From Phoronis australis (lineage: Eukaryota; Animalia; Phoronida), in NCBI GenBank assembly GCA_002633005.1, contig NMRA01000863.1, positions 1-64,000 of the forward strand: a stretch of DNA of 64,000 nucleotides, read 5' to 3'. Below are positions 11,637 through 52,353 of this stretch, piece after piece. Numbering within the stretch: the stretch's first letter is position 1; every line of letters begins with the position of its first letter. The position numbers and the translations under genes were made by a program. Under the pieces are notes generated by a model. It did no database searches. It had not been told where the DNA came from and was given only the letters and a program-made list of their open reading frames with translations.

Positions 11637-11712
11637 ATATATATATGTTTGGTCGGCATATGGATGGTACAAGGTTTTTTGTAACATNATATATATATAT
11701 ATATATATATAT
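11609..11712. repeat. Two (TA)n tracts, the second next to an N
   Basis: Direct reading. Confidence 0.9.
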
Positions 11713-14352: not shown

Positions 14353-15288
14353 AAAATGTTTTCTAACTAATGAGAAAACTAAATGGGTTATTACACTGTT
14401 GTGTTTGCCATTCGAGCCTAATATTGTGGTATAAGGGCATTTATCATAAGTCTGAGGGAGGATAGAAACTTTGTGGTAACCACAGCGTTTTTCTTCACGC
14501 GTATTTCAAAGATCGTGAGTTATGTGATTTTATCTGGCAATTTCCTCACACTGAAAATGAACTGCTCTGTACTAGAGGTTCTGAGATGGTACTTTCATCC
14601 GAAATCGGTTAAAACATATTGTGACGTAATTTCGCTTTGCATGCCTGTGCTGGATTCTTAATTGATGAGCTTTTCTTTAAAAGTATTGCCACTCTCATAT
14701 GAGCTTGAGTTGTTGCTGAATGAACTGGCAACTCAGGTCGCATGTACGCAACTTATTGTATACTATTGATTTCGTCATTTTTGGAAACACCAGTTAATTG
14801 TAAAGTGTTAGCTTGGGCTGCTGATCACTTTTGAAGTTCATGGTAAAGGTAACGAATATCGTGACATCGATTTATCATGAACCATGGAGTAAAAAGTGTA
14901 AGTGTATTACCGTTTTAGCTAAGTAAAGATGGTGGATGGTGTTAAAAGTGGCAAACTGGAGGAACTGCTGGTACTCTCAGGTGATACACCTGTATTTCGG
15001 TCCCCCTTTAAATTAAAATAGGCAACATAGGTGTCGTGAAACAGCTGATGTCAAGTCAGTATTGGGTTTGAGATAACACCGACATCTATAGTGCAGGGTA
15101 GTAAGAGTTTAAACATGTATTCAAAGCATAACATAAGACATGAACTGATGCCTTGGGAACTCGGATCACGGCAATAGACGAGGTAAACCGACTAGTAATC
15201 TATCGAACACTCGTGCAGTTGGATAAGACAGAAATAGAACACGTAGCACGCATCATGTCGATTTATTCGGTATTTTCACATGTTTGAA

Positions 15289-18200
15289 TTATATAGACCA
15301 TAATGCAGTTGGCACGGGCTTGCGCAAACCCATTTTGATTTTATCTCCCTCCTCGTCGCCAGATGACCTTCGGTTAGGGAAGGACATGTCAGAGGCCTTG
15401 ACGTCAGCAGTGAAGACACTGGAAAAAAACAGTTAACGATCTGAGCAGCAACAATTAATAAAGTTGAATAAAAACTTGAACGTGGGGAACTATGAGCATC
15501 AATAACCACGATCTCAACGTCTATTATATCAACGTACAGTATACGATTAAGTATTAAAACTGCATGCGGAGTTAGTCAATAAAAGTACGAATCAGTATAG
15601 CTTACATAAAATAACTTAATAATTAAAGATAATTTGTATAACTGTAATAACTGCGAAGCGATACCGAAGCTAGGTTACAGTGAAACAACACCTGAGACTG
15701 ACAAAAAGTAGCATGAGTAAAAGGGAGTACAAATACTGCCGAAAATAAGAAAAAGACTAACATAGAACAGAATAACATGACACTAAAAATATGTCAATCA
15801 TCGTAACAAGGTGTCGAAATGAGAGTAACTGAAATCTAAGAGGAAAATCAAGCTAACATATGGATTGATAACAACCAAGGAATATACATAAGGTACTCGG
15901 TAAGGTACATAGCAGACGTAATGTATGCTGCATACGCAGGTATATGTAAACAGTAATAGTGACACGTATAGACAGAAATTCATACAGATAATGAACCTAG
16001 AACGGGAATAATGTCTGAATCTTTGGTAGGGACCTACTAATCGATAAATAGGAAGCTGTAGTTTAACTAATTGCAGCGCCACCTACAATACTTTTTCTAT
16101 TACTCTTATAAATACTGGATATAGAAGGCGCTAAACCATTGTAGTGCAAAGAAAGATGAAATGGTGACTTCATTCATAGGTAAATGATGTTTCAGAAGTC
16201 AGTGTTAAGTTCCCAGCAAATTCGTATATTTCAAGCTACCTCTGTTACACAAACAGAAGATAAAGGTTCACAATTTTAGAGACACAAAACAAGCACTAGT
16301 TCAGCAGTTCCCACTATAATCGATGTGCCACCTCCGGGAAGTCAATAAATAACGGCTAGATGAAATTATGATGATCAAGTAGAAAATGCAAGTCAATTGA
16401 CAATTTCTTTAACTAATAGCTGCACCACCTGTAGGCAGGTAGATGACGTAGAACTTATCAACTGGCTCAAAATTTTAGAGTCTCCAAACACGAATTTCAA
16501 CTAATTCAACTATTCCCACTCTTCACTGTGCCATCTGTAGGCAGGTAGATAAAATCATAACCAACAGGCTTACAATTTTAGAGACACCAAACACGCATTT
16601 CAACTAATTCAACTATTGAAACTAATCGCTGCGCCACTTGCAGGGACAGACTCATAGTGATGACAAACATGCAGTCAGCAACAGGGCCACAACTTGAGAG
16701 ACACAGAACACAAACTTCAATTAATTTGACTATTCCCATTAATCGCTACGTCACCAGCAGGCAGACTAATGAAGTACATGACGTCAGCAAAAGGCTCACC
16801 AGATCACAAGTTGAGAGACACAAAACAAGCAGTTCAACTAATTCAGCTATTCCCAATAAAAGATGACGCCACCTGTGGGCTGGTAGGTAAGATGTATGAC
16901 GCCATCAACAAGCTCCCACTTTTAGAGACACCAAACACGCATGTCAACTTATTCAACTATTCCCACAAATCGCTGCACCACCTGCAGGCAAGGCAGTGAC
17001 TCCGGTCTTTCTTTCTCACAATGCCAATAATACCTCAGATAGCGCTACAATTGGTAGAATTACTTGAATTAGTGGAATAGCACAGTGCTGAATAGGTTCG
17101 GAGATGACTTGGGATTCAGATTAGTTGGGTTCAACTAATTCAACTATTTCTAATCGATGCCCACATCATGTGCACAATTTGATAACTTACATGACGTCAT
17201 CCACAAGCTCATAATGTTAGAGACACCAATCACGCATTTCAACTAATTCATCTATTCCCAATAATCGCTGCGCCATCTGACGGGGCAGTTTGAAAACAAG
17301 CATGATGTCAGCAACAGGCTTGCATCAGTGCCGGGTAATGGCAGGATAAGTTGAGATAAGTTGGGATTAGCGGGGTACAACTAAACATTCTAGCATGTAC
17401 GAGGGCATGGGGTAAAGCAACAAGAATCAGGACTGGAAAGAGTGCCCGGTAGGTAGGAGCCCAAAAACGGAGAGTAAGTGAATCAGGACACTGGCAATAC
17501 AGGCGCCCTAGTGAGAAAAAATGGAGGTGAGTGAAAAGGAAACTAGCAATACAGTTCAAAAGAAAATAACGGGGAGCGACAAAAGACAATGCCAACACAG
17601 CAGCGCCCGAGATGAAGATGAGAAGTGAACGTGAAACTGGCTATACATGTACAGTTGCCCCAATATATGATGAAAGGGGTTGGTGAGTGAGACAGGGCAC
17701 TGGCAATGGAGTTGACTCGATGTGGAGAAAAGGTATCATGAGGTTGAGCACTGGCAATACGTGTGTGCATTCAGTTGGCGTCGAAAGAGTCTGGTAATGA
17801 GTGAGTGGGATTGTTAGTAGCGGTAATTAAGTGTAAAAAATACAATTGTAGGCGGTCTGATACACGCTGTACCAGACGTGTGCATGCGTCACATGTGGGC
17901 CCATTACTCTAATCTCCTGGAACGATTTTTAAGCTTTATTAACATGTAGTTAAAACCGATCTGAGGAGCTAGAAACCTGGCTCAAGGGTTTAACAGTGTG
18001 ACATTGTGGGACTCGAACCCACCACCTCGAGTAAAGAAAGCGGGCACTTATCAATCAGGCCGCACTGCCTCCTGGTGGGAAGTGTAAGGATGGGAGACGA
18101 ATGGTAGTTCCTGAGCCCGTCGTGCTTCCAGCCACCCATACGCTGCGTGGTGGAGTCGGGAATTTGCAGGGTAGCGACAGAGAGGTGGCTGCGCAAATTC

Positions 18201-18431
18201 GGAAGCTATGAAATTTGTAGCGTTTAGGATCGAGACCAACGCACCCGAGAACCAAGTTAAGGTGGCGACTAAAGTAAAAGCGAGTTATGTTGGAAGTTAA
18301 GATTCAGCGAAGAAGAAATTACATTTTTATTGCAAAGTGAAGGTACATTGCTGTATCAACAAAATCACTTACGAAGCTGACGAGAACATCACGGTGACAA
18401 TCACAAGGGCAATGATATATACTGGCTTCAT
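15289..18431 (-). CDS. Small secreted peptide precursor, gene 1; complement(join(15289..15418,18373..18431)), 62 aa
   Basis: MKPVYIIALVIVTVMFSSASVFTADVKASDMSFPNRRSSGDEEGDKIKMGLRKPVPTALWSI*. Exon 2 (18373-18466) lies between the acceptor TTCTTTTGCAG and a GTAAGT donor. The phase-2 intron ends at CTGTTTTTTTCCAG. AATAAA at 15262-15267. Non-coding exon 1 at ~22202-22231. Structure conserved in two paralogues. Confidence 0.8.
16250..17290. repeat. Degenerate ~100-120-bp tandem repeat array in intron 2 of gene 1
   Basis: Recurrent TTTTAGAGACACCAAACACGCATTTCAACTAATTCAACTATTCCCA..AATCGCTGCGCCACCTG, about 8-9 copies. Confidence 0.85.
17295..18290 (-). mobile_element. DIRS/Ngaro-type retrotransposon 3' remnant with tyrosine-recombinase C-terminus (18055-18288)
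   Basis: Across frameshifts it reads FSRHLNLVLGCVGLDPKRYKFHSFRICAATS / IPDSTTQRMGGWKHDGLRNY / IRLP, matching the HSFRIGAAT...GRWKS....YIR YR motif. Non-coding tail with repeated TATTGCCAGTG motifs. Confidence 0.8.
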
Positions 18432-19254
18432 TGTAGTCTGCTAGGCTCGTATGGCGATATTTTAGGCTGCAAAAGAATCATGGCATTTTCAGTGTCATGG
18501 ACAGCGTTAAGTATCATACATAGATAGACTTTATAGCTGCATTTCACCTTGTTAAACTGGGGGAAAAGAGGCCTTTCATTCTCATCAAAACCGCCATCTT
18601 GATAATGGTTGACATGAGAGCATTCCAGTCCCGATACAAAACCAACAGGCACTGCATTTACGTATGTCATTGTGGAAGTTCAAAATCTTACATTTTTAAC
18701 CCGCTAAACAGAGCAAAATGCAGCTTTACGCTAATTGTAATCGTTCGTGTGATATTATCAAAGCTTTTTGACATCCTTCCTTCAAGGAGTTGGGTCTCCG
18801 ATTTTGATTCGTGTTGTGATTAATGCGAACTCTTGGCGCATAATCCCAGAAAAAATCCTATGGAAAGCGATACTACATATATATGACCTTGACACAAATT
18901 TGTCTTGTGATACATCTGATATCTCTATAAGAACTTTGTGTTTTACATACAACTTACACATTAACTGGCACATTACTGCGATTGTGTATACGTAGTGGTG
19001 GTGGTCTGGTAAAATACAAAATCTCGGCGAAAGTTCGCAAGAATACGATATATTGGGGTTTGTGATGTTTATTAGTAAATTTCTTTCTATGTACGTGAGA
19101 TATACATTTGACGGAGAATGCTATTCATTACAAATTATTAGGAAATCGACAGAAGGTAACACAGCAGACTTTCGTCCTCACATCATTTCATATTGTACAT
19201 GTACTTCACAATCCCTGTATCAGCCGTTTGAACCATGCGCAGATAACAGAATAA

Positions 19255-22201: not shown

Positions 22202-22262
22202 CAAATTGTCGCAACTAGTTTCGAGTCAGTGTGTAGAAACAATGTGATGGTCACTTATATAA
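22202..22262 (-). promoter_or_regulatory. TATA box and non-coding exon 1 of peptide gene 1
   Basis: Minus-strand TATATAAG at ~22254-22261, then a ~30-nt exon ending GTTGCGACAATTTG|GTAAGT. Conserved at 38763-38823 and 52291-52353. Confidence 0.7.
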
Positions 22263-22610
22263 TCTATCAAACAGCGAATACCCGCACTGTACTTATCTTA
22301 ATCTATTCGAACCCACTCGTATCTGCAGCAAATTATTCGATTACAGACGTGTCCTCGAAGAAATGCATGCACGGTGGCTACAAAAACATGGTATTTAACA
22401 TGTATATAATCTATCAAGCTGCTAATATCCCACATCGAAGCCGATCTTAATCTACTCGAACCCCTCGTATCTCCAGCATATTGTTCGATTACTGACGTTT
22501 ACCCGAAAAATTCATGCACAGTCGCTACAAAAACATGGTGTTTAACATTGATATAATCTTTCGAGCTGCTAATATCCTGCATTGAAGCCGGGCTTAATCG
22601 ATTCGAACCT
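22257..22610. repeat. 147-bp tandem repeat (~2.4 units) upstream of gene 1
   Basis: ATATAATC unit starts at 22257, 22404 and 22551. Confidence 0.85.
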
Positions 22611-23014
22611 CAGACCACGCTCACGCATGTAAGACATTTATCTCCAGTTTTTTAGTTTCCAATTTGTTGTCAACAAGTAAATTTAATCGAGTTAAATTAG
22701 GTCTCAATGCATGAGAAAGCCAGACAAGTATGTAAACTTGACGAATTACATATTTTTACTAATATCTAATATGAATGCTTTGAGAGTGGTGAACAACCCC
22801 AATGGTTTATGCTGATAATAGTCGTTTTACAGAAACCTCGATACCACAAATTTCGGGCATGTTAGTCCATGTTCTAAAAATCGCTCATAAAACACAATGT
22901 AATATAATAGGTGCTGCTAGCTCCAGGAGAAACTGATCGTCTGAGATTACAATATGAGCAACATTGTATTGTTTCAAATTGACTTTACTGGAGAGAAAGA
23001 TGGTTTTTCTGATA

Positions 23015-23110
23015 TCAACACCAGCAAGGATTCGAACCATGAACCTTCTAGACCGGTAACGCAGAGCAAGTGTAGATGAATGAGATACAACAGTTGACCA
23101 CGGCGAGCTT
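23015..23110 (-). other. tRNA-derived SINE-like head
   Basis: Minus-strand B-box GGTTCGAATCC (23030-23040). A-box poorly preserved. Confidence 0.35.
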
Positions 23111-23453
23111 TTATCGTGCACCCCAGTATGTACAGAATTAGATGTCTGTCTCTGTACTCAGAGCACCTCATAAAGAGGAGTCAAATTGAACGAGATTAGA
23201 TATTCGAGATACTGGCAAAAACTGATTGAAAATGAACAGTCATGCCTCCCTGAGCACCAAAAGACCCATGACGCAAGAAACCCAGAAAGGACCCCGTAAG
23301 GTCAAACATTCGAGGCACTACAATAGATAATTTCACATGATGAAGTACAGACCAATTAATACACTATGGGAAACAAATTACACTCTTGATTGGGCCCGCC
23401 AGAAATCTCAAAAATGTCACCATCTGTAGTTCAATTTGTGGAGTGATCATACA

Positions 23454-23586
23454 TACACAAAACGTACCGCGAGTGGCGTACATGAGGTAATATCTCACGA
23501 GACATTATTCCGATACGCGAAAAAATATCGAGTGGGATATTACTTCATGTACGCCAATGAAGGTATGTTTTGTATTTATCCCATAC
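23454..23586. mobile_element. Hairpin terminus of a second Crypton-like family (fragment)
   Basis: Arms TGGCGTACATGAGGTAATATCTCAC / GTGGGATATTACTTCATGTACGCCA with an inner GA/GA mismatch, followed by TTATCCCATAC (compare TTATACCACATAC). Confidence 0.55.
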
Positions 23587-26178: not shown

Positions 26179-26201
26179 TATATAATTATTTATCACAAGG
26201 C

Positions 26202-26275
26202 TACCGTTTTCGCCCTAATAAGCGCCCAGGGCGCTTAGAAAAATTCGCTTCGGGAATGCGGGCGCTTATTAGAGC
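26202..26275. mobile_element. Tc1/mariner(pogo)-like MITE end fragment
   Basis: TACCGTTTTCGCCCTAATAAGCGCCC...GGGCGCTTATTAG internal palindrome. Truncates the LINE. Partner end not found. Confidence 0.4.
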
Positions 26276-27790: not shown

Positions 27791-29939
27791 GCCTCTAGTT
27801 GCCGGCTCAGGACGTTCCAACACTTCAACTACCCGGTCATGTAGATACGAGTACAAGAGTTTTGTTACTCATGGGAAAATGTTTTGGAATTTGGCTCACG
27901 GAAATACACGAGGAAATCAGATTACATTTTGAGCACGGGGGTCGAATTGATGATAATCAACTCGTGCAGTTATATAAAAGAAAAAAGAAAACGCCGTAGT
28001 AAATATTGCGTTGCTATATTCGGTGTGTAATTTCATATTCTTTAATCATACATGTATGAACAGGAAAGGGAATAATTTATTTACTAGAACACGCTTCCCA
28101 TGCACAAACTCCGCAACGAGTTTTTGTTCAAAAACTGTATTTCGTTTGCATTACCCTGGTAGTTCAGAGCTAACTATCTTCGCGTTGCTTCAATCTCTTA
28201 GAAAAGCCCAGGAGGAAACCTTGTCGGCCACGGTTTTAGCCTCTGTCGCTAAAGACAGCATTTTTTCAGTGGCAGAAAAACGTGTGCTAAATATGTCGTA
28301 AATTAGTTGATTGGGACTCTTCACCTACTTTCTTTTGTAACCTTAAATTTGAAGTTGAATGAAATTTTGGTTTTGTTAAGTCACTTTGATTTTGCAATGG
28401 CACTTCGTGGATAAACTGGGACAACTCTTCTGCTCACAAGGTTGTGTTTGGAACTCCTAATGTGGTAAACATTGTAATTAATTCTGTCTTTACTGATAAG
28501 TTTATCAATACAACAATAGAAAAATCATCAATTGGAGAACACTTTGGGGTACCAAAACTGGGTTGAATAATGAATCGTTTAATATAATTAACTCCGTTAA
28601 CGTATGAAATCATTGCCATTTGGTATCAGGCAGCGGTACATTTTTCAAAGCTCTTTCCACATGACAAACTTTCTTCTCGCTCTTTTACAAACCTGCTTTC
28701 GTAGACCCAACAGCTGAAAAAGCCCACAGAACCTTAATAAAGGCCAAAATGGTAACAATTCGAGTAAAACTGGACTACAGAGATGGCGCTTCTTGCCTCT
28801 TGCTTCCGTACTTTTGTTGGCGTTTGCGTACTTCTCATACGTTTGGATTTTCAGTTGTGACGAAGATTTTAGTTTACTCTCTCAGCAATCATTTTTGGAC
28901 AAAGTTTGATCATCATACTCAAATGGTAAATGTTTTCCGTTGGATTTCGAGAATGTCCTGACAGCCATTGACACTTCGGGACGTAGACAAAATAGCAAAT
29001 ACTGAAGAGTTTAATTTTCAGTCGGGATGCTCAGAAGGACCGCCGTAATATAGATACACACCATGATAAGCCATATTTTCAAAGAGTTTGATAACCAACG
29101 GTCAAACCTTGGGAACCCCTGACATCACATCCTACTTGACTCAGGCACGAATTGACACCAATTGGCTACGCGTTGCAATTACATAGCACATGAACGCGAT
29201 TTGATGTCCCATGTCGTTAAGAGCTATGTTTTGTGACGGGTTCGTAGCCGCTTAAACTAACTTGAAGGCATTTGGACGTTGTTGAAGAGGTCAAAAACGC
29301 GATTAACAGACTAAATTGCAACATTGAAAGTAGTTCTCTGTCACTGAAACACATGTCAATCTATACACCAGGTATTTCAAAAGTTTGTTCCTAAACATTT
29401 TACTTGTGTTGATATCAAAGCATTTTCTTTTAGTTTCACATTTCAGAAAAGTGATCTGTCATCTGCTCGTCATTTCGTCGATTTTTCTCTAACAAGGCAA
29501 AGCACGTCTCCTTATTGGTATGGCAAGACATGGACGTACATATGTAACACATTTCCCTTATTTAGAAAATGTGACCTTTGACCTCAAGGGACTTCAAACA
29601 ACTGGCTGTGAGTGCATTCGTATAGATTTTTACACAGCCAAGTCGTATCCCCCGAATTCTAGAGGCCGAGTGGATTTTGGACGCCCTCGGGCAATAATTC
29701 TTCAAAATCAACGACGGCTCTAGATAAGGGGATAACGACGGCGAACATGTAATGATCTATTTATAGCACATACCTAACGAGAAATAATGCAATGAATCGA
29801 TCTACCTTTCTCGACTCGCCTCGGCTCTTGTTACTAAAATATCATTTTTTTAGAAATTATGTGTCTTATTTTTCATAGGGTATAAATATCGGCACAATGC
29901 CCTTTGTTGAACATGCGATTATAGCGCGTGTTCATTTAA

Positions 29940-31600: not shown

Positions 31601-32645
31601 TTAAGTATTTTATTTTCACGTTCGATGACGTCAGTTTCTGAGTGGTGTAGTGGTAAAGTTGACTACTCGAAACTCTTGTGAACTGGGTTCGAAACCGGCC
31701 TCAGTTCCCGCCAAAATGTTTTCTCACTAGTAAGATAACTAAATGGGTTGTTACGCTGTTGTGTTTGCCATTTGAGCCTAATATTGTGGTATAAGGGCAT
31801 TTATCATAAGTCTGAGGGAGGATAGAAACTTTGTGGTAACCACAGCGTTTTTCTTTACGCGTATTTTAAAAATCGTGAGTTATGTGATTTTATCTTGCAA
31901 TTTCCTCACAGTGAAAATGAACTGCTCTGTACTAGAGGTTCTGAGATGGTACTTTCGTCAGAAATCGTTTAAGACATATTATGACGTAAATTCCCTTTGC
32001 ATGCCTGTGTTGGATTCTTAATTGATGCGCTTTTTGTTCAAAGCATTGCCACTCTCAAATGAGCTTGGGTTGTTGCTGAATGAACTTGCAACTCAGGTCG
32101 CATGTACGCAACTTAATGTATACTATTGATTTCGTAATATTTGGAAACACCAATCAATTGTAAAGTGTTTGCTTGGGCTGCTGATCACTTCTGAAGTTCA
32201 TGGTAAAGGTAACGAATATCGTGACATCGATTTTTAATGAACCATGGAGTAAAAAGTGTAAGTGTATTACCGTTTTAGCCAAATGAAGATGGTGGATGGT
32301 GTTAAAAGTGTCAACATGGAGGAACTGCTGGAACCCCCAGGTGATATTTTCCGTCCCCCTTTAAATTAAAATAGCACAGGTGTCGTGAAACAGCTAATGT
32401 CAAGTCGGTATTGGGTTTGAGATAACAGCGACATCTATAGTGCAGGGTAGTAAGTTTTTAAACATGTAATCAAAGCATAAAATAAGACATGAACTGATGC
32501 CTTGGGAACTCGGATCACGGCAATAGACGAGGTAAGCCGACTAGTACATGTAATCTATCGAACACTCGTGCAGTTAGATAACAGACTGAAATAGAACACG
32601 TAGCACGCATCATGTCGATTTATTCGGTATTTTCACATGTTTCAA

Positions 32646-35600
32646 TTATATAGACCATAATAAAGTTGGCACGGGCTTGCGCAAATCCATTTTGATTACA
32701 TCTCCCTCCTCGTCGCCAGATGACCTTCGGTTAGGGAAGGACATGTCAGAGGCCTTGACGTCAGCAGTGAAGACACTGGAAAAAACAGTTAACGATCTGA
32801 GCAGCAACAATTAATAAAGTTGAATAAAAACTTGAACGTGGGGAACTGTGAGCATCAATAACCACGATCTCAACGTCTATTATATCAACGTACACTATAC
32901 GATTAAGTATTAAAACTGTATGCGGAGTTAGTCAATAAAAGTACGAATCAGTATAGCTTACATGAAATAATTTAATAATTAAAGATAATTTGTATAACTG
33001 TAATAACTGCGAAGCGATACCGTAGCTAGGTAACAGTGAAACAACACCTGAGGATTAGATAGCATATCATGTATATTATGAAAAACTATACTACTTCAGA
33101 TATGGATAATTACAAAATTTATACATGTATAATATGTTGAGCTGTACAGGTGGGTGACAATCTGACACAGATGCAGCAGAAGGATGCATCCGCCCTCCCG
33201 AGAGAGAGCGTGTGAGACTTACAAAAAATAGCATGAGTAAAAGGGAGTACATATACTGCCGAAAATAAGAATAAGAACAGAATAACATGACACTAAATAT
33301 ATGTTAATCATCGTAACAAGGTGTCGAAATGAGAGTAACTGAAATCTAAGAGGAAAATCAAGCTAACATATGGATTGATAACAACCAAGGAATATACATA
33401 AGGTACTCGGTAAGGTACATAGCAGACGTAATGTATGCTGCATACGCAGGTATATGTAAACAGTAATAGTGACACGTATAGACAGAAATTCATACAGATA
33501 ATGAACCTAGAACGGGAATAATGTCTGAATCTTTGGTAGGGACCTACTAATCGATAAATAGGAAGCTGTAGTTTAACTAATTGCAGCGCCACCTACAATA
33601 CTTTTTCTATTACTCTTATAAATACTGGATATAGAAGGCGCTAAACCATTGTAGTGCAAAGAAAGATGAAATGGTGACTTCATTCATAGGTAAATGATGT
33701 TTCAGAAGTCAGTGTTAAGTTCCCAGCAAATTCGTATATTTCAAGCTACCTCTGTTACACAAACAGAAGATAAAGGTTCACAATTTTAGAGACACAAAAC
33801 AAGCACTAGTTCAGCAGTTCCCACTATAATCGATGTGCCACCTCCGGGAAGTCAATAAATAACGGCTAGATGAAATTATGATGATCAAGTAGAAAATGCA
33901 AGTCAATTGACAATTTCTTTAACTAATAGCTGCACCACCTGTAGGCAGGTAGATGACGTAGAACTTATCAACTGGCTCAAAATTTTAGAGTCTCCAAACA
34001 CGAATTTCAACTAATTCAACTATTCCCACTCTTCACTGTGCCATCTGTAGGCAGGTAGATAAAATCATAACCAACAGGCTTACAATTTTAGAGACACCAA
34101 ACACGCATTTCAACTAATTCAACTATTGAAACTAATCGCTGCGCCACTTGCAGGGACAGACTCATAGTGATGACAAACATGCAGTCAGCAACAGGGCCAC
34201 AACTTGAGAGACACAGAACACAAACTTCAATTAATTTGACTATTCCCATTAATCGCTACGTCACCAGCAGGCAGACTAATGAAGTACATGACGTCAGCAA
34301 AAGGCTCACCAGATCACAAGTTGAGAGACACAAAACAAGCAGTTCAACTAATTCAGCTATTCCACTAAAAGATGACGCCACCTGTGGGCTGGTAGGTAAG
34401 ATATATGGCGCCATCAATAAGCTCCCACTTTTAGAGACACCAAACACGCATGTCAACTTATTCAACTATTCCCAAAAATCGCTGCACCACCTGCAGGCAA
34501 GGCAGTGACCCCGGTCTTTCTTTCTCACAATGCCAATAATACCTCAGATAGCGCTACAATTGGTAGAATTACTTGAATTAGTGGAATAGCACAGTGCTGA
34601 ATAGGTTCGGAGATGACTTGGGATTCAGATTAGTTGGGTTCAACTAATTCAACTATTTCTAATCGATGCGCCACATCATGTGCACAATTTGATAACTTAC
34701 ATGACGTCATCCACAAGCTCATAATGTTAGAGACACCAATAACGCATTTCAACTAATTCATCTATTCCCACTAATGGCTGCGCCATCTGACGGGGCAGTT
34801 TGAAAACAAGCATGATGTCAGCAACAGGCTTGCATCAGTGCCGGGTAATGGCAGGATAAGTTGAGATAAGTTGGGATTAGCGGGGTACAACTAAACATTC
34901 TAGCATGTACGAAGGCATGGGGTAAAGCAACAAGAATCAGGACTGGAAAGATTGCCCGGGAGGTAGGAGCCCGAAAACGGAGAGTCATTGACACTGGCAA
35001 CTAATATAGGCGCCCTAGTTTAAAAAATAGTGAGTGAAAAGGACACTGGCAATACAGTTCAAAAGAAAATAACGGGGAGCGACGGAAGACAATGCCAACA
35101 CAGCAGCCCCCGAGATGAAGATGAGTAGTGAACGAGAAACTGGCAATACAGTTGCCCCAATATACATGTATGATGAAAGGGGTTGGTGAGTGAGACGGCA
35201 CTGGCAATGGAGTTGACCCGATGTGGAGAAAAGTCGTCATGAGGTTGAGAACTGGCAATACGTGTGTGCATTGGCAACGAAAGAGTCTGGTAATGAGTGA
35301 GTGGGATTGTTAGTAGCGGTAAAGTGTAAAAAATACAATTTTAGGCGGTCTGATGCACGCTGTACCAGACGTGCACAGGCCGCGCATGTGGGCCCATTGC
35401 ACTAATCACCTGGAACGATTTTTAAGCTTTATTAATATGTAGTTCAAACCGATCTGAGGAGCTAGAAACCTGGTTCAAGGGTTTAGCAGTGTATCATTGT
35501 GGGACTCGAACCCACCACCTCGAGTAAAGAAAGCGGGCACTTATCAATCAGGCCGCACTGCCTCCTGGTGGGAAGTGTAAGGATGGGAGACGAATGGTAG

Positions 35601-35930
35601 TTCATGAGCCCGTCGTGCTTCTAGCCACCCATACGCTGAATGGTGGAGTCGGGAATTTGGAGGATAGCAACAGAGAGGTGGCTGTGCCAATTCGGAAACT
35701 ATGAGATTTGTAGCGTTTAGGATTGAGACCAACGCACCCGAGAACCAAGTTAAGGTGGCGAGTAAAGTAAGAGCGAATTAAGTTGGAACTGGAAGTTAGG
35801 AGTCAGCGAAGAAGGAATTACAACTTTATTGTAAAGTGAGGGTACATTGCTGGATCAACATAATCACTCACGAAGCTGACGAGAGCATCACGCCGACGAT
35901 CACAAGGGCAATGATATATACTGGCTTCAT
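32646..35930 (-). CDS. Small secreted peptide precursor, gene 2; complement(join(32646..32775,35872..35930)), 62 aa
   Basis: MKPVYIIALVIVGVMLSSASVFTADVKASDMSFPNRRSSGDEEGDVIKMDLRKPVPTLLWSI*. Exon 2 spans 35872-35965 with a GTGAGT donor. Acceptor CTGTTTTTTCCAG. AATAAA at 32619-32624. Exon 1 at ~38763-38792. Confidence 0.8.
33760..34800. repeat. Degenerate ~100-120-bp tandem array (copy of 16250-17290)
   Basis: Same units as copy A. Confidence 0.85.
34805..35778 (-). mobile_element. DIRS/Ngaro-type remnant with tyrosine-recombinase C-terminus (~35548-35775)
   Basis: Reads GLNPKRYKSHSFRIGTATS / IPDSTIQRMGG*KHD. Confidence 0.8.
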
Positions 35931-38762
35931 TGTAGTCTGCTTGGCTCGTATGGCGATATTTCAGGCTGCAAAAGAATCATGGCATTTTCAGTGTCATGGA
36001 CAGTGTTAAGTATCATACATACATAGACTTTATAGCTGCTTTTCACCTTGTTAAACTGGATGAAAAGAGGTCTTTCATTCTCATCAAAACCGCCCTCTTT
36101 ATAATGGTTGACATGAGAGCATTCCAGTCCCGATACAAAACCAACAGGCACTGCATGTACATATGTCATTGTGGAAGTTGAAAATCTTACATTTTTATCC
36201 CGCTAAATAGAGCAAAATGCAGCTCCACTTTAATTGTAACCTTTTTGAGATCCTTCCTTCAAGGAGTTGGGTCCCTGATTTGAGTCGTGTTTTGATTAAT
36301 GCGAACTCTTGGCGCATAATCCCAGAAAAAATCCTATGGCAAGCGACACTACATATACATGACCTTAAAACAAATTTGTCTTGTGATACATCTCAAATCT
36401 CTATAACAACTTTGTGTTTTACATGCAACTCACGCATTAACTGGCAGGCAATGGAATTGTGTATACGTAGTGATGGTGGCCTGGTAAAATACAAAATCTC
36501 GGCGAAAGTTCGCAAGAATACGATATGTTGGGGTTTGCGTTTTTTATTAATAAATTTCTTTCTATGTACGTGAGATATACATTTGACGGAGAATGCTATT
36601 CATTACAAATTATTAGGAAATCGACAGAAGGTAACACACCAGACTTTCGTCTTCACATCATTTCATATTGTACATGTACTTCACAATCCCTGTATCAGCC
36701 GTTTGAACCATGCGCAGACAACAGAATGATGCAAGTGAGCAAAAGATGCTACCACCGATCACGAGTCGAAAAAAGATCAACCCTTAGAAGAAAAACCAGA
36801 CTTGGCGATCTTAGTGTTATTCGTAAGAATCATGTGAAAATCATTCTTTGCCTATGGATATGTGATTTTTATTTGTACGTCGTGTGATGTTGTGATTCGT
36901 ACCTAAGATGTTGCGGTTTGCAAGCATGATGCTCTGTGCTGTACCTAAGGTATCGTGGTTCCGTGGTAAGATTTAATGCTGACGATTTTCATGGGTTCTG
37001 GTGTATTGTTCAAAGTTCGTGCGTGTGATTGTCTGATGCATTGGGTTGCAAACTAAGAAATTATAAATAGCTGATCGATAGTCATTCATAGATAGGAGTT
37101 CGTTGTCCGTTTTTATAACCGACAGACTCGTTAGTTTCGTTGAATTTGATCGAACTTTTGTATCTAAAGTGAACAATTTATAACGATATTCCAATTTAGT
37201 CAGATTTAACCATACAGTGACTTAGAAGTGTTTCTGTTGTTTTGTAGTTGCTTCCCATTTATCATAACTGAAAAAATACATCGGTACAGTATGTGCTTCT
37301 TTCCAAACGTGTCTCGAGTAATTTTTAGAGCTTTTCTGTCTGAAAATCCTTTCAATAATTGATAATTTCTCTTGAATATTCCGAGCAATTAGCCATTGTA
37401 AATTAAGCTATTTAAAATATATTACGTTCAAGTGCAATACATCTACATGTAGAACATTGTTACTACAAAGCTATATATTGTGTTTTAATGATTAATTACT
37501 TTTAGTGGAGTTTCGGAGCGGAAACTTTTCGTTTTCTACTTTGAAAAGCAGGTGGACAGATCAGCGGTTTTGGTTTTGCACGAAATTGATGAATTAGAAA
37601 AGGTAGAAATACGAACAAGGGTTTTGCTGAGAACAACCGACTCTTAGTTTACTGAGCGAATAAAATGGGGCCTTCACAGCTCTATGATCTTGTACAAAGC
37701 CACAAGGCGGAAGGTAGACAAGTCTCCTCCATATGTTATTGCCCTAAGGAAACACACGGTGAATTCATACATATCCTTCAGAAATCACGTGATATAAAAC
37801 GTGCACAAAGAGCCTGGAATTATTCAAATGACGTGCCATAGTTATGGAAATCTTTACATAGCTTGGAAAATTCATGACGGTGAAGAAGTATTATACTCTT
37901 TTGGGTTGAAAATGAAAAAGAGTTAGATTTTTTCTCTGGCGTTGAAACCGACAACTCTTTAAAAATAGAAACCAAAGAGTCCTATTGCCCTGTGCAAAAA
38001 AATTACTTTGCTAAGACAAATCCTAAATTTAGTTAAGATGAATCTTGAATTTGTCTAAAGTCCGTTAAAAGAAAGAGATCTTGAGTTTGACTTGATAGTT
38101 TTTTTACTTATATTTCGTATTCAGTTAGTCTTCAATCATACCAGATGTTCAAGTTTCAAAGCTTGAAGGTTGAGACAAATCTTGGCCTTAAGTCAAAAAT
38201 GAACTTAGTCAGTTTTTTGGAACTGCCGTTTGGCTTAAAAGGACTTATAGTTTAGTTTTTCTTAATTCTTTTGACTGCTACAAATACCAGCTTTATCAAT
38301 TATCGTTCACAAGAAATGAGGCATTTTACGGGTATTTTTAAAAAGAACAGATAAAATGATGTGGAAGTTTCAAAACTTGAAGGTTGAAACAAATCTTAGC
38401 CTTAAGTCAAAAATGAACTTGGTCAGTTTCTCATTGTTGACGATTTCTCTGGCCTCTGCACTGTTGTTGAAAAAAAAATCAGTTCTTTTCGTTTTAAGGT
38501 ACTGAAACAAATCTTTGTCAGAGAACTGATGTCATTGATCAAAATAGGTGTCTTGTTCTTAGTGTTTACTATCCAAGTCCACTTGCATGATACGACTGAG
38601 AAGAGTGTAACATTTAAGCCTTCTCACTCACTCACTGACCTATCCATCCGAACAATGGACCGCGTATCTGACATTTCAATGCACATTTGTTGTCGCCACT
38701 GACAGATAGTCTACACATACACAAAGTAAAATTATTTCGAAAATCTAGAAGAACATACTTAC

Positions 38763-38823
38763 CAAATTGTCGCAACTAGTTTCGAGTCAGTGTGTAGAAA
38801 CAATGTGTTGGCCACTTATATAA
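38763..38823 (-). promoter_or_regulatory. TATA box and non-coding exon 1 of peptide gene 2
   Basis: Minus-strand TATATAAG, then an exon ending ...ACAATTTG|GTAAGT. 147/146-bp repeats start at 38818, 38965 and 39111. Confidence 0.7.
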
Positions 38824-39514
38824 TCTATCAAACAGCGTATACCCGCACTATACCTATCTTAATCTATTCGAACCCACTCGTATCTGCAGCAAATTATTCG
38901 ATTACTGATGTGTCCTCGAAGAAATGCATGCACAGTGGCTACAAAAACACGGTGTTTAACATGTATATAATCTATCAAGCGGCTAATATCCCACATTAAG
39001 CCGATCTTAATCTACTCGAACCCCTCGTATCTCCAGCATATTTTTCGATTACTGACGTTTACCCGAAAAATTCATGCATAGTCGCTACAAAAACATGGTG
39101 TTTAACATTGATATAATCTGTCGAGCTGCTAATATCCTGCATTGAAGCCGGGCTTAATCGATTCGAACGTCAGACCAAGACGAGATTTCGTCGTGCTCAC
39201 TGGTGTCGTAGGCCTACTCGAAAAAGCGTATTTAATGTCTCATTTCGAGTAGACTCCAAACGCGTACTCAGATCTCAGAACCGTACTCGAGTTGCTATGG
39301 AACACTTCAGTTATGATGTTAAATGCAAAACCACGACAAGTCACGCTGATTCAGCGCTCCCTATATTGGCATCGACTATCCTAGCAACTATGTTATCGTC
39401 AGCTCTCGTTACAATTACAGGAGTATAACGTGGAATGGTGAGTGTTCTGTTACTGATCAATACGCTATTGTCCTACCATTTCTTGATACATTTGTAGAAT
39501 ATAAATAGGTAAAT

Positions 39515-46030: not shown

Positions 46031-46739
46031 GATCATGATCATGGTATGGAACGCCACTTATTGGCCATTCTCTTTTTATCGACAACTCAGTGACTGTTCT
46101 TTTTCCACAGTTGTGTAAATTTCATAGCGTATTATTGTTATGAGGTTTTAGTGAAGAATCGACAAGAAAATAGCAAAACGCCGCGTTTGTAACGAGCGAC
46201 ACTAGTTCTCAAGACGAAACCTTTTTGTTAATCAAATTAGGAGGATGACGCAACATGACTTTGATCTCTATCACATGGAATTGTTTTCGTGGTAACTTGA
46301 ATTTTGTGCTCGTCCTCTTAGTGCCGCGGTGTTAGGTGTGGAACAATTGCATAATTTTGTGCATTCAAATTACATTAATGAATCGGAGAACTTCTAGCGG
46401 AAACCCTAGCGCCGATATCACGTTAAGTTATTATTGCTATTACTTAATGTACGTCTAGCTACAACAGCTCAAAAAGCAGGTGACGAAAACACGCTTACTA
46501 GAGTATGTTCAGTCTTAAACTGGTGCTTTGGGCACTGAATGGGATCAGGGTCAGAGGCGAGGAAAGCAAATAATCTGCCGATCAATGAGGTCGAGTTTGT
46601 CGCAATCAACCAGCTCTTGCAATTCATGACAGAAGAAAAGAAAAGTTTACAGTACTCATTGTGTCTCTTTATTCAGTGTATATTTCCACATATCTGGATT
46701 ATGGCCCAATGTAGGGACAGGTTTTACTGATTAACGTTC

Positions 46740-48927
46740 TCAATACCCCCTTGTAGGCATAGGTACGTTGAGGCGAAGATCGGTGTCTGTATTTCTCTCG
46801 ACGTCCAAGAATCTCTTTTCATTGTTGATCGTGCGGCGCTCGACTTTGGCCGCCTTGGCTGGATCAGTGCAGCAAGCCTTAGCTTCCGTGACGCTAAAAC
46901 AACAATGACCTTTTTTATTCGATTGCCCGCGGGAAAATGTGAAACAACGAATCCAAGCTGGGTACCTAAACTACACGGTTGACGGGTAAACACGGTCACG
47001 GACGCATGAACACGACTCACGGACACCGTCCACTGACTCACGAACACGGGAACGGACTCACCAACCCGACCCATTCACCCAAATACACGGGATACGGACT
47101 CACATTCACGAAGAAACACCGTGGTTAACGAACCGCAAAAAACCATACGGTTTATGGACAAAATGTCAGCTGACCCAGGAATACGATGAGTCCGTGACCC
47201 GTGTTTGGCGGTCCGTTAACCGTGTTCCTCGTGAATACGAGTCAGTGTCCCGTGTATGTGGGTGAATGGATCGTGTTTTTTGAGTCCGTTACCCGTGTTT
47301 GTGAGTCAGTGGACGGTGTTTGCAGGTACGTGAGTCGTGTTCATGCGTCCGTGACCGTGTATTTTAGGTACCTTGGAATCTAGAAAAATATCGATGTCAC
47401 ATACGGCCAGTTTGAACTCAGAAATCTAGTTGTGCAGGTGCGTAGTATGCCCTTGCTTTTTTACGAGTCATAACAGTAGGCCGTACTAGCATAACTGTTC
47501 ATAGCTGTTATATTTTATGTGGTGAGAGGAATAAAAACTCAGCTCATGATGATAACAACTAGTCTAAATCTATTCCAATGTGGCGGCTTGCATTACAACA
47601 ACGTTTTCTTACAAATGCGAGACTTAAACTAAAAACATACAAACATCACAATAGCAATAAAATGTAATGTGTGTACCGACAAGTACACGTGTACGGTATA
47701 CGTGACTTCATAGCTACAAGCCTACCCTTACCCCTAACAGCAATGACATTGGAAGTTAAACAAAGCCAAGCCCTGTTTAGCCCATTTGTTAGCTGGGTAG
47801 ACAATAGACAATCCTGCGGAAGGGGCGGAGCTCTCAAACTTCATAGTTTTAACAGGTTTGTCTAATGCTTTGATGTGGCATCTCTTGTGTAAAACGAAAT
47901 ATTATTTCTGCAAGCTAGCTGGCTAATTGATTACTAACGTAGTACAATAGGCCAAAACAGGGCTTGACATTGTTTTGATGGATGATCGGATAGCGGTGCT
48001 GTTGAGATACCGGAAGTCACGTACGCGACTGAAGTCACGTATACAGTGCACGAATTCTCAGTTGTCGGCACAAGCATTACATTTTAATACTGTGAGCAGT
48101 TGTGTTGGTACGGGCCTTAGTGACAATGTTGTTCCCAGTGGCCTTTGATATTCATAGTGTTAGTACGACCGGAGAGTTGGAGTAATTAGTCTATCACGTT
48201 TCTTGTAAAAGTAACTGCACTTGTTGATCCTAAATTTTTAATGAAGAATGTAATTCTATCAAACGCCACCTCAGGTACAACTAATTATTAATGATGTATA
48301 ATTTTGGATGAATGCCTGACTAAATTATCGGCACAATTGTCTGATGTACGTGCCCGAATTTTGAGAACCAGTTTTCCCCACGGGCATCAAACTGGTTCTC
48401 AAAATGCGGGCACGTTATATATCAGACGATTGCCAAATTATCTACAGCAACTGTGAAGGATCCATATTTGAAAAGTATTTGTCTTGATACGGTAGAAATC
48501 TTTTGAATCATTGAAATTACTTCACTGTTGGTTTAAGTAGTCACTTATATAACCTCTCTACACTCTGTTAGATTTCGCATTTTGGCAACACTCTTGGATT
48601 ATAAAATTTAAAAAATTGGTTCAAAACTGTCAGGTTTACAAAACGATAATTGGCATGTACAAAGTAAACAAATCAACGCAAAAAAATTCCACGCATGCGC
48701 GGCGCAACCTCAGCAGCACGAGATCGAAATATCATCGCGTTACAGGGCTGCGATTTGAATGCTCAAACTGATAATTTTATAGGAAAGTCCAACCGGGTGT
48801 TAGCGAAGGAGGCATTGTGACTTTCATGCTCCCTGTGTATATTTATATTGCTGGATAACACAATCACTCACGTAGCTGAGAACATCACGGTGACAATCAA
48901 CAGGGCAATGATGTATACCGTCTTCAT
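46740..48927 (-). CDS. Small secreted peptide precursor, gene 3; complement(join(46740..46893,48872..48927)), 69 aa
   Basis: MKTVYIIALLIVTVMFSATVTEAKACCTDPAKAAKVERRTINNEKRFLDVERNTDTDLRLNVPMPTRGY*. Exon 2 spans 48872-48962 (CTTTTACAG acceptor, GTGAGT donor) with the same phase-2 intron. Acceptor TTGTTGTTTTAG. AATAAA at 46668-46673, in a 3' UTR similar to genes 1 and 2. Exon 1 at ~52291-52321. Confidence 0.8.
46961..47372. mobile_element. Foldback MITE (almost fully palindromic)
   Basis: GGTACCTAAA...TTTAGGTACC termini. ACACGG/ACGGACTCAC units are mirrored by CCGTGT/GAGTCCGT units. Confidence 0.8.
47646..48096. mobile_element. MITE/foldback with ~60-bp imperfect TIRs and an inner inverted repeat
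   Basis: AAAATGTAATG..CCGACAA..GTATACGTGACTTC versus GAAGTCACGTATAC..TTGTCGG..CATTACATTTT. Inner pair CAAGCCCTGTTT / AAACAGGGCTTG. Confidence 0.65.
48330..48434. repeat. ~105-bp hairpin, possible Crypton-like terminus
   Basis: ACGTGCCCGAATTTTGAGAACCAGTTT / AAACTGGTTCTCAAAATGCGGGCACGT. Confidence 0.75.
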
Positions 48928-51900
48928 TATCGTCTGTTTGGCTCTTCTGTTGATATCTCAGGCTGTAAAAGGACCGTGACATGTTCAGTCCCATGGAAAT
49001 AATTTTCAATACATGGTAAAATATATGTATCATACATACATACATTAATAAGTCACGTTTCGCTCAGTTTACTGAATAGAAACGAAAATCGAATTAGCCT
49101 TTCACTCAAAAACAATCGGTCTCATATTCCTTGCAATGAGAGCATTCCATTTATTATGTTAAATCAACAGGCAATACACAGGTGAGCCGATTTCAAAGTC
49201 GGAATTTTTAGTTTGTGCAATCTAAATAAACGCCGAACGTTCCACCATGACACTGTTTCTCAAAAGGAATTTTAATTATCAATACATCAAAAGTCTTAAG
49301 AGATTTAATAGCCTTTACTATACCTGTTGCGAAGAAAAAAAGGCAAAAAATAAAAAATCTTTTTCTGTTCTCGCGACGGTGCAATAATGAGGAGCGTTGT
49401 GAGGATAGTCCGGGAAGAATCGCCTTCTTCAGACATAAAAAGTTCGCTTGTGGAGGCTGTAGTAACAGCAACTGGACCGAGAACATCTCTGTGTTCAAAT
49501 TTCTTTAAGACGTGAAAGTTGCACAGAAATGGCATCGACTTTGTGCGCCGTACGAGTTTGTGGGATGTTAGTGTGGAACATACTATTTGGTCGGGAGCCA
49601 CCATTTGTTCGGCACATTTCAAGAAATCTTATTCAACCAAACACAAAAGCGCGGCGTTACGATGAAGGACTCGCCACCTTGAAAGTAACGCCAGTGCTTT
49701 CATTCTGGTGCAAGTAATCACAGGCCCTCATCCCTGGCCCAGATCGAGTGCTACGACACGTACGAGGCTTATGCTTGTATAGTGTTCAGACAGTGCTCGT
49801 TTCGTCATGGCAATGGTGAATACGAGTGACCCGGGTTTACTGGGGCATTTGTCAGTGATTATTAAGTGTCAGTTTCGCATGTTACTTGTCCAGTTCTTGC
49901 TCAGAAACGTCCTCATCTTCTGACCTGCTGAGTTTCGCTATTCCAGTTGATAGTCATATGACCAAGCGTCTTCCACGCATTACTTCACTTGGCGGTAAAC
50001 TTGGAAATAACGATTTTTTCATCAAAATTAAAAAAATCTACACTATTTGGCATAAAAGGTGCTCCTTTTGTTAGATTTTATGGCATTCATTTCATATTCG
50101 CTCACTGACACCTCAAACTGAAAACTATGAAGATGCATGTTGGGAACTCTAAGTTGCTGATGATTTCGATATCAAGTTGTTGTTAACCCAAAGAGAAGTC
50201 CTTCACAGAAATGAAAGGGACCGACTTGATAAAGAGTTTAGAGACCTAATTCGGTTTTCGTTTTTAAGGCAGTTAAATAGAGAGAAATGCCGTTTTAAAG
50301 CAATTGCAATTATTCGTGAAGTTACAGAACGCAAAATTTACGTAGCGTGTATGACATCCTTCCTTCACCCGGTGAGGCCTGCAATTTCGCGTTTGGGATT
50401 GTGTCTTGAGTAATACGAACTCCTCACGAATAATCTTGGACAAATTGTCGGAAAACGATTCTAGCACGATCTGAAATACATGTATGTCAGTCCATGATAC
50501 GTTTTCGTGAGAACTGAATTTTGTCCGAGAAACCTCAATACTCAAGCGATTCTGTAGCCTTATTGACGAAAGTTCGCATAAAATAACGTAGCTGGCTTTT
50601 GCGCTTTTGACATACATGTAATGCGTCTGTAAATTTGTTTTTTGTGCGTAGTAAATATTTGGCAGAGATTGCTATTTACTGCAAAATATTAGGAAAACAA
50701 TATAAATTTAGAATATTATATCAGACAATCGTTCTGACATCACTTCGAATTGCACGCCACAATCTCTGAGTCATCCACGACGAATCTTCCATCAAGTACG
50801 TGCAAGGACAACAAAAAAATACCGGCGAGTATGATATCAAGCATTCAATTGCGAGTCGAATAATCGATCAATCGTTTGAAGAAAAATCAGATCTGGCGAT
50901 CATAATGTCATTTGTAAGAATCACGTGGATTTCGTGGTCTGTACATGGAGTTGTGGTCGTTATTCGTACGTATGATGTTGTGGTTCGTACAGTTACCGGT
51001 GGAGGCCATTTACACAACACAAAATAACACCAAAGGCTTATTCACAAATGGGTCTAGTGAATATATTAAAGTCCAGTCTCCCTGCCTGCTTTGTGGGACT
51101 GGTTGACAATCAATGGGGAGTCGTCGGAACCACGTCGACGTTCTGGTACGGCCCAAGGAACTAATGTGTCTGTTGCTCTGTGATAGGGGGATTATACCGG
51201 AGCGCCAAGGGCGGCGTTACACATCTTACTGATCAATTTGTAAGCCACCTACATGTATAACCGCAGGAAAGTCTGAAGTACATGTAGTAAAGTGGGGGCA
51301 AATATCAAATTAAAAGGACAGACAAAGCTAGCGTAACGAATAGCTCGTAGTTTTTTAATGTATAAAATTATTGTTCTTCAACTGAAGTGAAAGGCGTCAG
51401 TGAAATACATCAATCTAACGTCTTCTCTGTCGTAGCTACCCCCACTCCTGTAAACATTGACTGCACACTTTTATCAGTGCATGCATCGTCTGTCCATAGC
51501 CCTGCCACCCGACGTATGTAGGTGCACTGATACGCGTAAAATGTAACAATTTACGTCATTGTTACATTTTACGTTGCTAGGCCTCTCCTAAAATTACAAA
51601 AATGATTACACGGTGGATATCCTCAAATTTAGATGAAAGTCGAGAGTAAAATAGTGCGGTCTGAATCAAGTTAATTTCTTCTTAGCAAACTACAGATGGA
51701 TATATATTGATATCTACAAACAATACAGTGCTGAGAAATTTAATTTGATTGCGTTTTGAAAAATTGCTTCCCAGTTTTTTTTGTTATTGAAAAAAAAACA
51801 ACAATGAAAAGGATGCATTTTCTTTTTTACAGCCCATTAGAATAGTTTAATTGATATTACACCATCGGTTTGTGATTCTTTCTTATCGCGTCTTACGGAA

Positions 51901-52290
51901 CTGCTGTGTCTAAAAATCGTTTTAATTGTGTAACCGTTGTAAGTAATGATATTAACGGTTTTGTAGGACCCTCGGAAATTGGTCAAATTTGGCAAATGTT
52001 GGAACATAATACTTTAGAAATGGCTGGTCGAAATTCACATGAAACTTTTAGATGTCATATATGATATGGCAGTTTAGAGTGTCCGGCAAGTTTTTGGCAT
52101 TTTCAATCATGAGGAGTCTCGATATTACTCGTGACGAATGCAAAGGTTCCGTGCATCATGCCTCTGACTGGTGTTTCACTTCCGTTTACTTATCGTCGAC
52201 TAGCTCTTCTAGTTCTGTCCAGTTATTCTATCGCTGACAGGTTGTCGTCACGTATAAAAGCAGAATTGTTCCAAAAAACGATGTACTTAC

Positions 52291-52353
52291 CAACTTGTCG
52301 CAATTAACTTGTTGTCAGTCTATAGGAACTAACTGTTGTTGATCATTTATATA
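52291..52353 (-). promoter_or_regulatory. TATA box and non-coding exon 1 of peptide gene 3
   Basis: Minus-strand TATATAAA at 52346-52353. The exon ends TTGCGACAAGTTG|GTAAGT and is homologous to exon 1 of genes 1 and 2. Confidence 0.7.

Follow-up and report, generated by a model that had tools for sequence, protein, structure and literature searches.

Transcribed tandem genes for predicted small secreted peptides in Phoronis australis, with a conserved signal exon and a scrambled last exon

Introduction

Clusters of lineage-restricted genes for secreted peptides are common in invertebrates. A 64,000-nucleotide stretch from Phoronis australis (contig NMRA01000863.1, positions 1 to 64,000; hereafter, the window) raises the question of whether its minus strand carries such a cluster, which parts of the genes are kept between copies, and what their products might do. 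An original prediction, made from the letters of the DNA, had placed here 3 spliced genes in tandem (g1, g2, and g3) for an unrecognized family of small secreted peptide precursors. Here, we report that these genes are transcribed and spliced, that by alignment they appear to share a conserved promoter, exon 1, signal exon, and polyadenylation (polyA) block together with a scrambled last exon, and that this well-expressed peptide gene family, found from raw DNA, is missed by open reading frame (ORF) callers and by the large protein collections searched.

Transcription, splicing, and gene structure

The cluster comprises g1 (22261-15246), g2 (38822-32604), and g3 (52353 to ~46650), all on the minus strand; copy numbers given throughout refer to the 64-kb window, which has a GC content of 38.9% and a CpG observed/expected ratio of 0.91. 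Each gene consists of a TATA box, a short noncoding exon 1, an exon 2 for the predicted signal peptide, a phase-2 intron, and a last exon that ends the ORF and contains AATAAA. TATATAA starts at 22261 (g1), 38822 (g2), and 52353 (g3), ~60 nt upstream of the first donor, and all 3 genes use GTAAGT/GTGAGT donors and AG acceptors. Exon 2 measures 94, 94, and 91 nt in g1, g2, and g3, with the ATG at offset 35 in each, the ORFs encode 62, 62, and 69 amino acids (aa), and AATAAA starts at 15267, 32624, and 46673. All coordinates of the original prediction for TATA boxes, exons, splice sites, phases, ORFs, and AATAAA proved correct, as did its product sizes and hydrophobic N-termini. Exon 3 is open from acceptor to stop in the phase-2 frame only, the other frames being closed; a random frame stays open for at least 42 codons in 9% and for 50 codons in 6% of window tiles.

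RNA evidence was drawn from 5 runs (X1 to X5) with 2 organism labels from 3 studies, with X3 to X5 belonging to a single study, and ~18-19% of each raw run was sampled. Reads of 4 runs were mapped for g1 at 80% likeness, at which g1 and g2 are not separable, and reads of 4 runs for g2 and g3 on 32500-52499 at 95% likeness; both mappings left out 22701-32499, which contains the relic exon described below. The cluster is transcribed and spliced, and g1/g2-type transcripts are polyadenylated: spliced reads were found at all 6 predicted junctions, and a contig from X2 has poly(A) at 15246, behind which the genome offers no A-rich template. For g1, junction 15418/18373 is covered by 61 (X3) and 95 (X4) reads and junction 18466/22202 by 10 (X3) and 6 (X4). 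For g2, 89 (X4) and 202 (X5) reads as well as an X1 contig support 32775/35872, and 6 (X4) and 27 (X5) reads support 35965/38763. For g3, the corresponding counts are 424 (X4) and 379 (X5) reads at 46893/48872 and 54 (X4) and 44 (X5) reads plus an X2 contig at 48962/52291. At every junction the ends are CT..AC on the plus strand, equivalent to GT..AG when read on the minus strand; all first mates lie on the plus strand.

Transcripts are present in all 5 runs, covering all 3 studies, at similar levels in X3 to X5. The most abundant is that of g3, with hundreds of junction reads from 1.6 Gb, and several hundred loose ends in the g1 mapping turned out to be g3 junctions. Transcripts of g2 type are a minority, since most reads at the sites diagnostic for g1 versus g2 show the g1 letter: at 32662, it occurs in 18 of 23 and 41 of 50 reads (g2 letter, 5 of 23 and 9 of 50), and at 35942, in 65 of 70 and 123 of 147 reads (g2 letter, 5 of 70 and 24 of 147). 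A joint of 32775 to 48878 (4 and 22 reads) was considered as a g3-g2 chimera and rejected, because the 9 intervening letters match the exon-2 end of g1/g2, so that these are g1-type reads placed on the similar g3 exon. One X2 contig has a loose end at 46893-46860, with a one-base change that turns the Ala before two Cys into Asp, while X3 and X4 agree with the window; in this single contig, the difference may be either an allele or an error.

The promoter region of g1 (22256..22609) consists of a 147-bp tandem repeat with 2.4 copies of the upstream/TATA segment, and TATATAA (22261-22255) is kept in the proximal copy only. Its noncoding exon 1 (22202..22232) has a donor after 22202 that is given by reads and a 5′ end placed from the TATA spacing. 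Exon 2 (18373..18466) holds a 35-nt untranslated region (UTR), the ATG at 18431, the predicted signal peptide, and the phase-2 donor, and exon 3 (15246..15418) holds 42 codons with RR at aa 36-37, KPVPT at 15321-15307, and the stop at 15291-15289, followed by AATAAA (15267-15262) and the poly(A) at 15246. In g2, promoter and exon 1 (38763..39168) include 146-bp repeats, TATATAA at 38822, and a donor after 38763, with reads ending at 38782; exon 2 (35872..35965) has its ATG at 35930 and a predicted signal peptide, and exon 3 (32604..32775) contains 42 codons, KPVPTL at 32678-32661, the stop at 32648-32646, and AATAAA at 32624. In the g3 gene, promoter and exon 1 (together 52291..52392) comprise a single promoter copy, TATATAA at 52353, and a donor after 52291, with reads ending at 52311-52314; they are followed by an exon 2 (48872..48962; ATG at 48927) whose predicted signal peptide is one codon shorter than that of g1, with the frame intact. 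Its exon 3 (46650..46893, the 3′ end being approximate) comprises 50 codons with two adjacent Cys, RR at aa 38-39, KR at aa 45-46, and PMPT close to the C-terminus, followed by the stop at 46742-46740 and AATAAA at 46673. All these features lie on the minus strand.

Several observations concern the noncoding parts. The promoter repeats of g1 (22256-22609) and g2 (38856-39168) have units of 146-147 bp in 2-2.4 copies, with decayed distal TATA boxes; g3 has one promoter copy, yet it yields more reads than g1/g2. Directly upstream of the g3 TATA lies GGGATATTCG, a kappaB-like element that is altered in g1/g2. Intron 2 of g1/g2 contains a degenerate repeat with a period of ~106-120 bp (16412-17320 and 33922-34830) that is absent from g3. 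Furthermore, a 400-bp element resembling a miniature inverted-repeat transposable element, with long inverted arms, occupies 46960-47360, ~70 nt upstream of the g3 exon-3 acceptor, and its insertion may be connected with the lost similarity at the 3′ end of g3 intron 2.

Conservation between the copies

In the comparison with g3, the signal-coding part shows 85% (g1) and 78% (g2) nucleotide identity, followed by the 5′ UTR (71-77%), exon 1 (74%), the promoter (63-64%), and the 5′ ends of the introns (56-61%). In exon 3, the coding DNA of g3 is 46% identical to that of g1/g2, which is not above shuffles (z = 1.7 and 1.1); DNA alignments restricted to the exon-3 coding parts failed to exceed shuffles under any of 4 scoring schemes, and the 3′ end of intron 2 shows no similarity beyond shuffles either. 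For the exon-3 peptides of g3 versus g1/g2, the local alignment score was matched by 741 and 1038 of 5000 shuffles and the global score by 199 and 272 of 5000. The original prediction had pointed to a shared (D/G)LRxxVP segment near the C-terminus. This segment stays at chance level in the peptide alignments and, because the exon-3 peptides are not significantly alike, does not count as evidence by itself.

The g1 and g2 coding sequences disagree at 9 of 186 nucleotides, with 8 nonsynonymous differences at 141 sites and 1 synonymous difference at 45 sites (Fisher p = 0.69). The duplicated unit has a neutral divergence of 5.4%, the same as the coding divergence. Such a value speaks against the young pair being strongly constrained, and the differences are too few to indicate positive selection. 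The earlier suggestion of selection on real genes holds for the signal exon, in which it is visible at the protein level, but not for the comparison of g1 with g2.

A probable coding remnant in the 3′ UTR of g3

The 3′ UTR of g3 harbors, at 46707..46724 (minus strand) and in frame after two stops (46742-46740 and 46733-46731), codons for KPVPTL, which is the hexapeptide of g2 (KPVPT in g1). All 6 third positions differ from g2, and all 6 differences are synonymous, a placement expected in 1 of 18564 cases if random. The hexapeptide match was reached in 1 of 20000 shuffles of the UTR, and none of 1379 window tiles matched over 6 residues; the g1 five-mer was reached in 17 of 20000 shuffles. Furthermore, the distance from KPVPTL to AATAAA is 51 nt in g3 and 54 nt in g1/g2, and the products of both types carry PxPT 3-5 residues from the C-terminus.

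As all 6 differences are synonymous, we infer that KPVPTL was once coding and under long selection in both lineages. Since the g2 hexapeptide stands in frame behind two stops in the g3 UTR with synonymous differences, the g3 ORF likely came to end 14 codons earlier, now with PMPT, and its coding window would thereby have shifted. A 14-nt block located 33 nt inside g1 intron 2 resembles positions 18-31 of g3 exon 3 (12 of 14 identical), which is suggestive, though only that, of an acceptor in g1/g2 that moved ~51 nt downstream, in frame.

Additional copies and the relationship of g1 and g2

Sequence comparison establishes the paralogy of the genes and the presence of relic copies in the tandem array. 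A relic last exon lies at 27960..28248 (minus strand), with a polyA block, the signal AATATA at 28020, a g3-like acceptor at 28248, and PVHT (28064-28053), which is in the phase-2 frame and takes the position of PVPT. Its polyA block (28049-27985) is a weak hit window-wide (E = 0.023) and aligns to all 3 genes (0 of 500 shuffles each), and the g3-like acceptor, 228 nt above AATATA, was reached in 34 of 5000 local shuffles, though it is not outstanding window-wide. We regard 28248-27960 as a relic because stops occur in all 3 frames and no exon 2 was found; neither was a promoter. In addition, an orphan copy of intron 1 (11702-12842, minus strand) is 85-90% identical to g1/g2, collinear with a deletion, and abuts the g1 duplication unit; no exons were found with it. 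Profile scans of the window returned no fourth exon 1 or exon 2 and no further intact exon 3. In total, the cluster shows traces of 5 units, which points to birth-and-death evolution.

It seems very doubtful that g1 and g2 represent a single locus whose two alleles were assembled in tandem, which would leave two intact genes and be compatible with any function. Their divergence of 5.4% lies within the range seen between alleles in polymorphic marine invertebrates, and a contig from X1, which bears the second organism label, combines a g2-like exon-2 end with a g1-like exon 3. However, the flanks differ on both sides, with the orphan intron to the left of g1 and the relic exon to the left of g2, the intron-1 segment exists in 3 copies, and g2-type letters form a steady minority at 32662 and 35942. 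In view of the differing flanks and the 3 intron-1 copies, we favor g1 and g2 as probable true paralogues. The X1 contig (15247-15418 and 35872-35902) has 1 difference from the g1-like exon 3 and 1 from the g2-like exon-2 end, and its mosaic character may reflect recombination, gene conversion, or an ancestral state. None of the contigs mapped from X1 is of g3 type.

Predicted products

In all 3 products, the N-terminus combines a basic residue with a hydrophobic core, whose 11-aa mean hydropathy reaches 3.0-3.1, and -3/-1 sites lie at 19-28; based on hydropathy and the -3/-1 rule, a signal peptide is predicted for each. The pieces after the last RR/KR would comprise 25, 25, and 23 aa (2715, 2786, and 2723 Da for g1, g2, and g3), with net charges of 0, -2, and -1 and isoelectric points (pI) of 5.9, 4.4, and 4.7. 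A dibasic site leaving a tail of 20-28 aa, a size range set after the fact, occurs in 7-18% of shuffles per gene. The C-termini are I, I, and Y, with no terminal Gly; a C-terminal Gly for amidation is common in neuropeptides, though not obligatory. Exon 3 encodes 0, 0, and 2 Cys, and hence no cysteine array. AlphaFold2 on the exon-3 alignment gave no confident model (pLDDT 53, pTM 0.17).

Searches for relatives

Protein searches used the exon-3 peptides only, as the signal-exon peptide of 18-19 aa is below the minimum length of the tools. None of the 3 exon-3 peptides matched Pfam, and the g1 and g3 peptides gave 0 candidates in a set of 5.8 billion proteins. A profile search against 1.84 billion representatives yielded 1 hit (E = 2e-4), a repetitive 151-aa singleton that aligned with the RR/acidic stretch only and was judged spurious, and the best hit of a profile search of the PDB, a P450 (E = 0.16), was rejected. 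In the ESM Atlas, g3 found only unnamed clusters (0.89-0.90, with low recognition) and g1 found nothing. Among metagenome contigs, the signal-exon pattern had 0 matches, and 0 of 146 pattern stretches could be confirmed. Rfam and ARAGORN gave 0 hits each. The main texts of papers, which were the scope of our literature search, contained none of five 7-residue motifs of the products, nor KPVPT together with signal peptide and precursor; they likewise held no precedent for the combination of premature stop, UTR, and propeptide, related topics giving analogues only. The prediction that the family has no named match was thus borne out in Pfam, the 5.8-billion set, the PDB, the Atlas, the profile search, and the metagenome contigs. 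Short spliced animal genes are poorly covered by these collections, and the queries were themselves short, so that the family is absent from the collections searched, but not thereby from nature.

Comparison with known systems

The cluster works like an export-exon family and is a member of no family tested. Conotoxin-type precursors follow the same plan of signal peptide, pro region, KR/RR site, and hypervariable C-terminal peptide. Ranid frog skin-peptide genes have a noncoding exon 1, an exon 2 with a short UTR and the signal peptide (74 coding nt), and a last exon carrying the remaining ORF together with the 3′ UTR, and they occur as clustered genes with a conserved signal exon and pseudogenes (PMC13128954). 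The three-exon layout, the conserved signal exon, the clustering, and the decayed copies are shared with g1 to g3 (PMC13128954), and the 74 coding nt place ranid exon 2 in phase 2 by arithmetic, as do the 59/56 coding nt found here. However, the searches with the exon-3 peptides gave no sequence match, the composition of the window is not vertebrate-like, the products here are not cationic, and their acidic residues follow the dibasic site, whereas in ranid precursors they form a spacer before it. The resemblance is likely convergent. The frog report states that the export-exon process has not been demonstrated (PMC13128954).

Among marine invertebrates, the myticalins of Mytilus share with g1 to g3 three exons with a noncoding exon 1, a conserved signal peptide, a dibasic site, and linear hypervariable peptides, and they likewise form a multigene family with pseudogenes (PMC5577615). 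They differ in a mature peptide on exon 2, a phase-1 intron, a pI >11, an anionic extension, and another signal consensus (PMC5577615); g1 to g3 show neither a product of pI >11 on exon 2 nor a phase-1 intron or an anionic C-terminal extension. The MgCRP-I family of Mytilus has a signal peptide, a pro region, KR/RR, a hypervariable C-terminal peptide on the last exon, and duplication in common with the genes described here, but has 4 exons and a six-cysteine array, compared with 3 exons and 0 or 2 Cys here; its function is given as unresolved (PMC4558851). AjGLRFA-P, a small echinoderm candidate neuropeptide precursor, also has 62 residues, a signal peptide, and a basic cleavage site (PMC6586643), but GLRFA and the HPC motif are both absent here, and the equal length is a coincidence. 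Finally, the arminin and periculin clusters of Hydra likewise consist of orphan, tandem genes for small secreted precursors, which differ from g1 to g3 in their bipartite charge, cationic at the ends, and in their cysteine patterns (PMC10945409).

Possible function and alternative explanations

The explanation that we tentatively favor, at somewhat less than even probability, is that the genes encode secreted prepropeptides that are cut at RR/KR to linear PxPT peptides acting on an external protein target as exocrine effectors. The conserved promoter, UTR exon, and signal exon would export a fast-changing last-exon peptide, and cleavage would release a linear, uncharged-to-acidic peptide of 23-25 residues (~2.7 kDa). 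This peptide would likely act outside the body or on epithelial surfaces, in defense or as a chemical signal, through a protein target rather than membrane lysis. Diversification would have proceeded partly by a moving reading window, with the earlier stop in g3 leaving KPVPTL in the UTR and an ending in PMPT, and the g1/g2 acceptor may have moved ~51 nt downstream. Translation, secretion, convertase cleavage, the role of Pro-Val/Met-Pro-Thr, and the exocrine function are all what we infer here. A further-reaching version, which we consider rather unlikely, is that the export-exon cassette slides its last-exon window by acceptor shift and earlier stop, so as to yield near-unrelated cargo peptides that both end in Pro-hydrophobic-Pro-Thr, with this motif as the active core of secreted effectors or signals, non-cationic and free of cysteine, that would form an undescribed class.

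Several results weigh against this favored account. The middle of exon 3 cannot be aligned as homologous between g3 and g1/g2. The g1/g2 coding divergence is neutral, with neither purifying nor positive selection visible, since it equals the neutral divergence of the unit. The RR/KR sites of the original prediction are present, but are common for the composition, as 32-72% of composition shuffles have one. The acceptor-shift match was reached by 22 and 14 of 5000 shuffles, which is modest for a match that was looked for after the fact, and an internal duplication of 42 nt within exon 3 of g3, considered as the source of PMPT, was not significant (191 of 400 over all periods). Of the proposed prepropeptide system, what stands is that the genes are real, expressed, and paralogous, that their N-termini are hydrophobic, and that no named family was matched in the searches; a shared conserved mature segment is not supported, the exon-3 peptides being at shuffle level.

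The neuropeptide option of the original prediction, a lineage-specific neuropeptide or hormone precursor with one C-terminal peptide for an endogenous receptor, is unlikely. Neuropeptide precursors usually conserve the mature peptide best, while here conservation is lowest in the mature region, with only PxPT persisting, and highest in the signal exon; this combination of a conserved signal exon and a scrambled last exon is why we favor an effector type. The missing C-terminal Gly, the tandem turnover with relics, and the lack of a family hit also argue against a neuropeptide, although signal peptide, dibasic site, and single C-terminal peptide fit one, the synonymous divergence of PxPT is old, and echinoderm candidate precursors of 51-82 aa show the same plan (PMC6586643). 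That the products are uncut or near-neutral secreted proteins without a specific target (mucus, matrix, O-glycosylated, or drifting products of the export cassette) is decidedly unlikely: the neutral rate of amino-acid change between g1 and g2, the chance level of the dibasic sites, the lack of a confident fold (pLDDT 53), and the tolerated loss of KPVPTL from the g3 ORF speak for it, but the 6 of 6 synonymous differences in KPVPTL imply long selection, and PxPT stands 3-5 residues from the C-terminus in both product types.

A role in reproduction, with rapidly diverging peptides that serve as gamete attractant, spawning cue, or seminal peptide, is quite improbable. Small, linear, non-cationic products, their restriction to near-identical organisms, and the fast change of the last exon agree with such a role; the transcripts in all 5 runs, at similar levels in X3 to X5, tell weakly against it, and the precursors lack repeated peptide copies, which sea-urchin egg peptide precursors contain. 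Classic membrane-active antimicrobial peptides, another option of the original prediction, are highly improbable. The gene layout and the birth-and-death pattern resemble those of antimicrobial families of frog (PMC13128954), Mytilus (PMC5577615), and Hydra (PMC10945409), but net charges of 0, -2, and -1, with the pI values given above, argue against the classic cationic type, and there is no cysteine array.

The cluster offers a compact case of change in a secreted-peptide family, in which promoter and signal exon are fixed, the last-exon window appears to move, and relics remain. As an independent export-exon case from an invertebrate, with a probable coding fossil in the UTR of g3, it provides a tractable test, and its predicted peptides are small enough to be approached directly by peptidomics and assay.

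Other features of the window

A broken remnant of an uncharacterized transposon-like protein family, with no Pfam match, occupies 655-1455; its ORF at 709-1101 has 81 relatives with 40-63% identity, of which one, from a sea anemone (53%), is named. A probable mobile element is present in two copies that are 93-96% identical (40044-41141 and 55695-56793, inverted; 43564-46030 and 56765-59209), and RNA reads cover 39837-43838, in the region of this element, on both strands. The short frames at 25049-26238 had no Pfam hit and look like reverse-transcriptase remnants of a long interspersed nuclear element. The most enriched 8-mers of the window are TACATGTA, with 22 sites (~11-fold), and TGACGTCA, with 10 sites (~12-fold).

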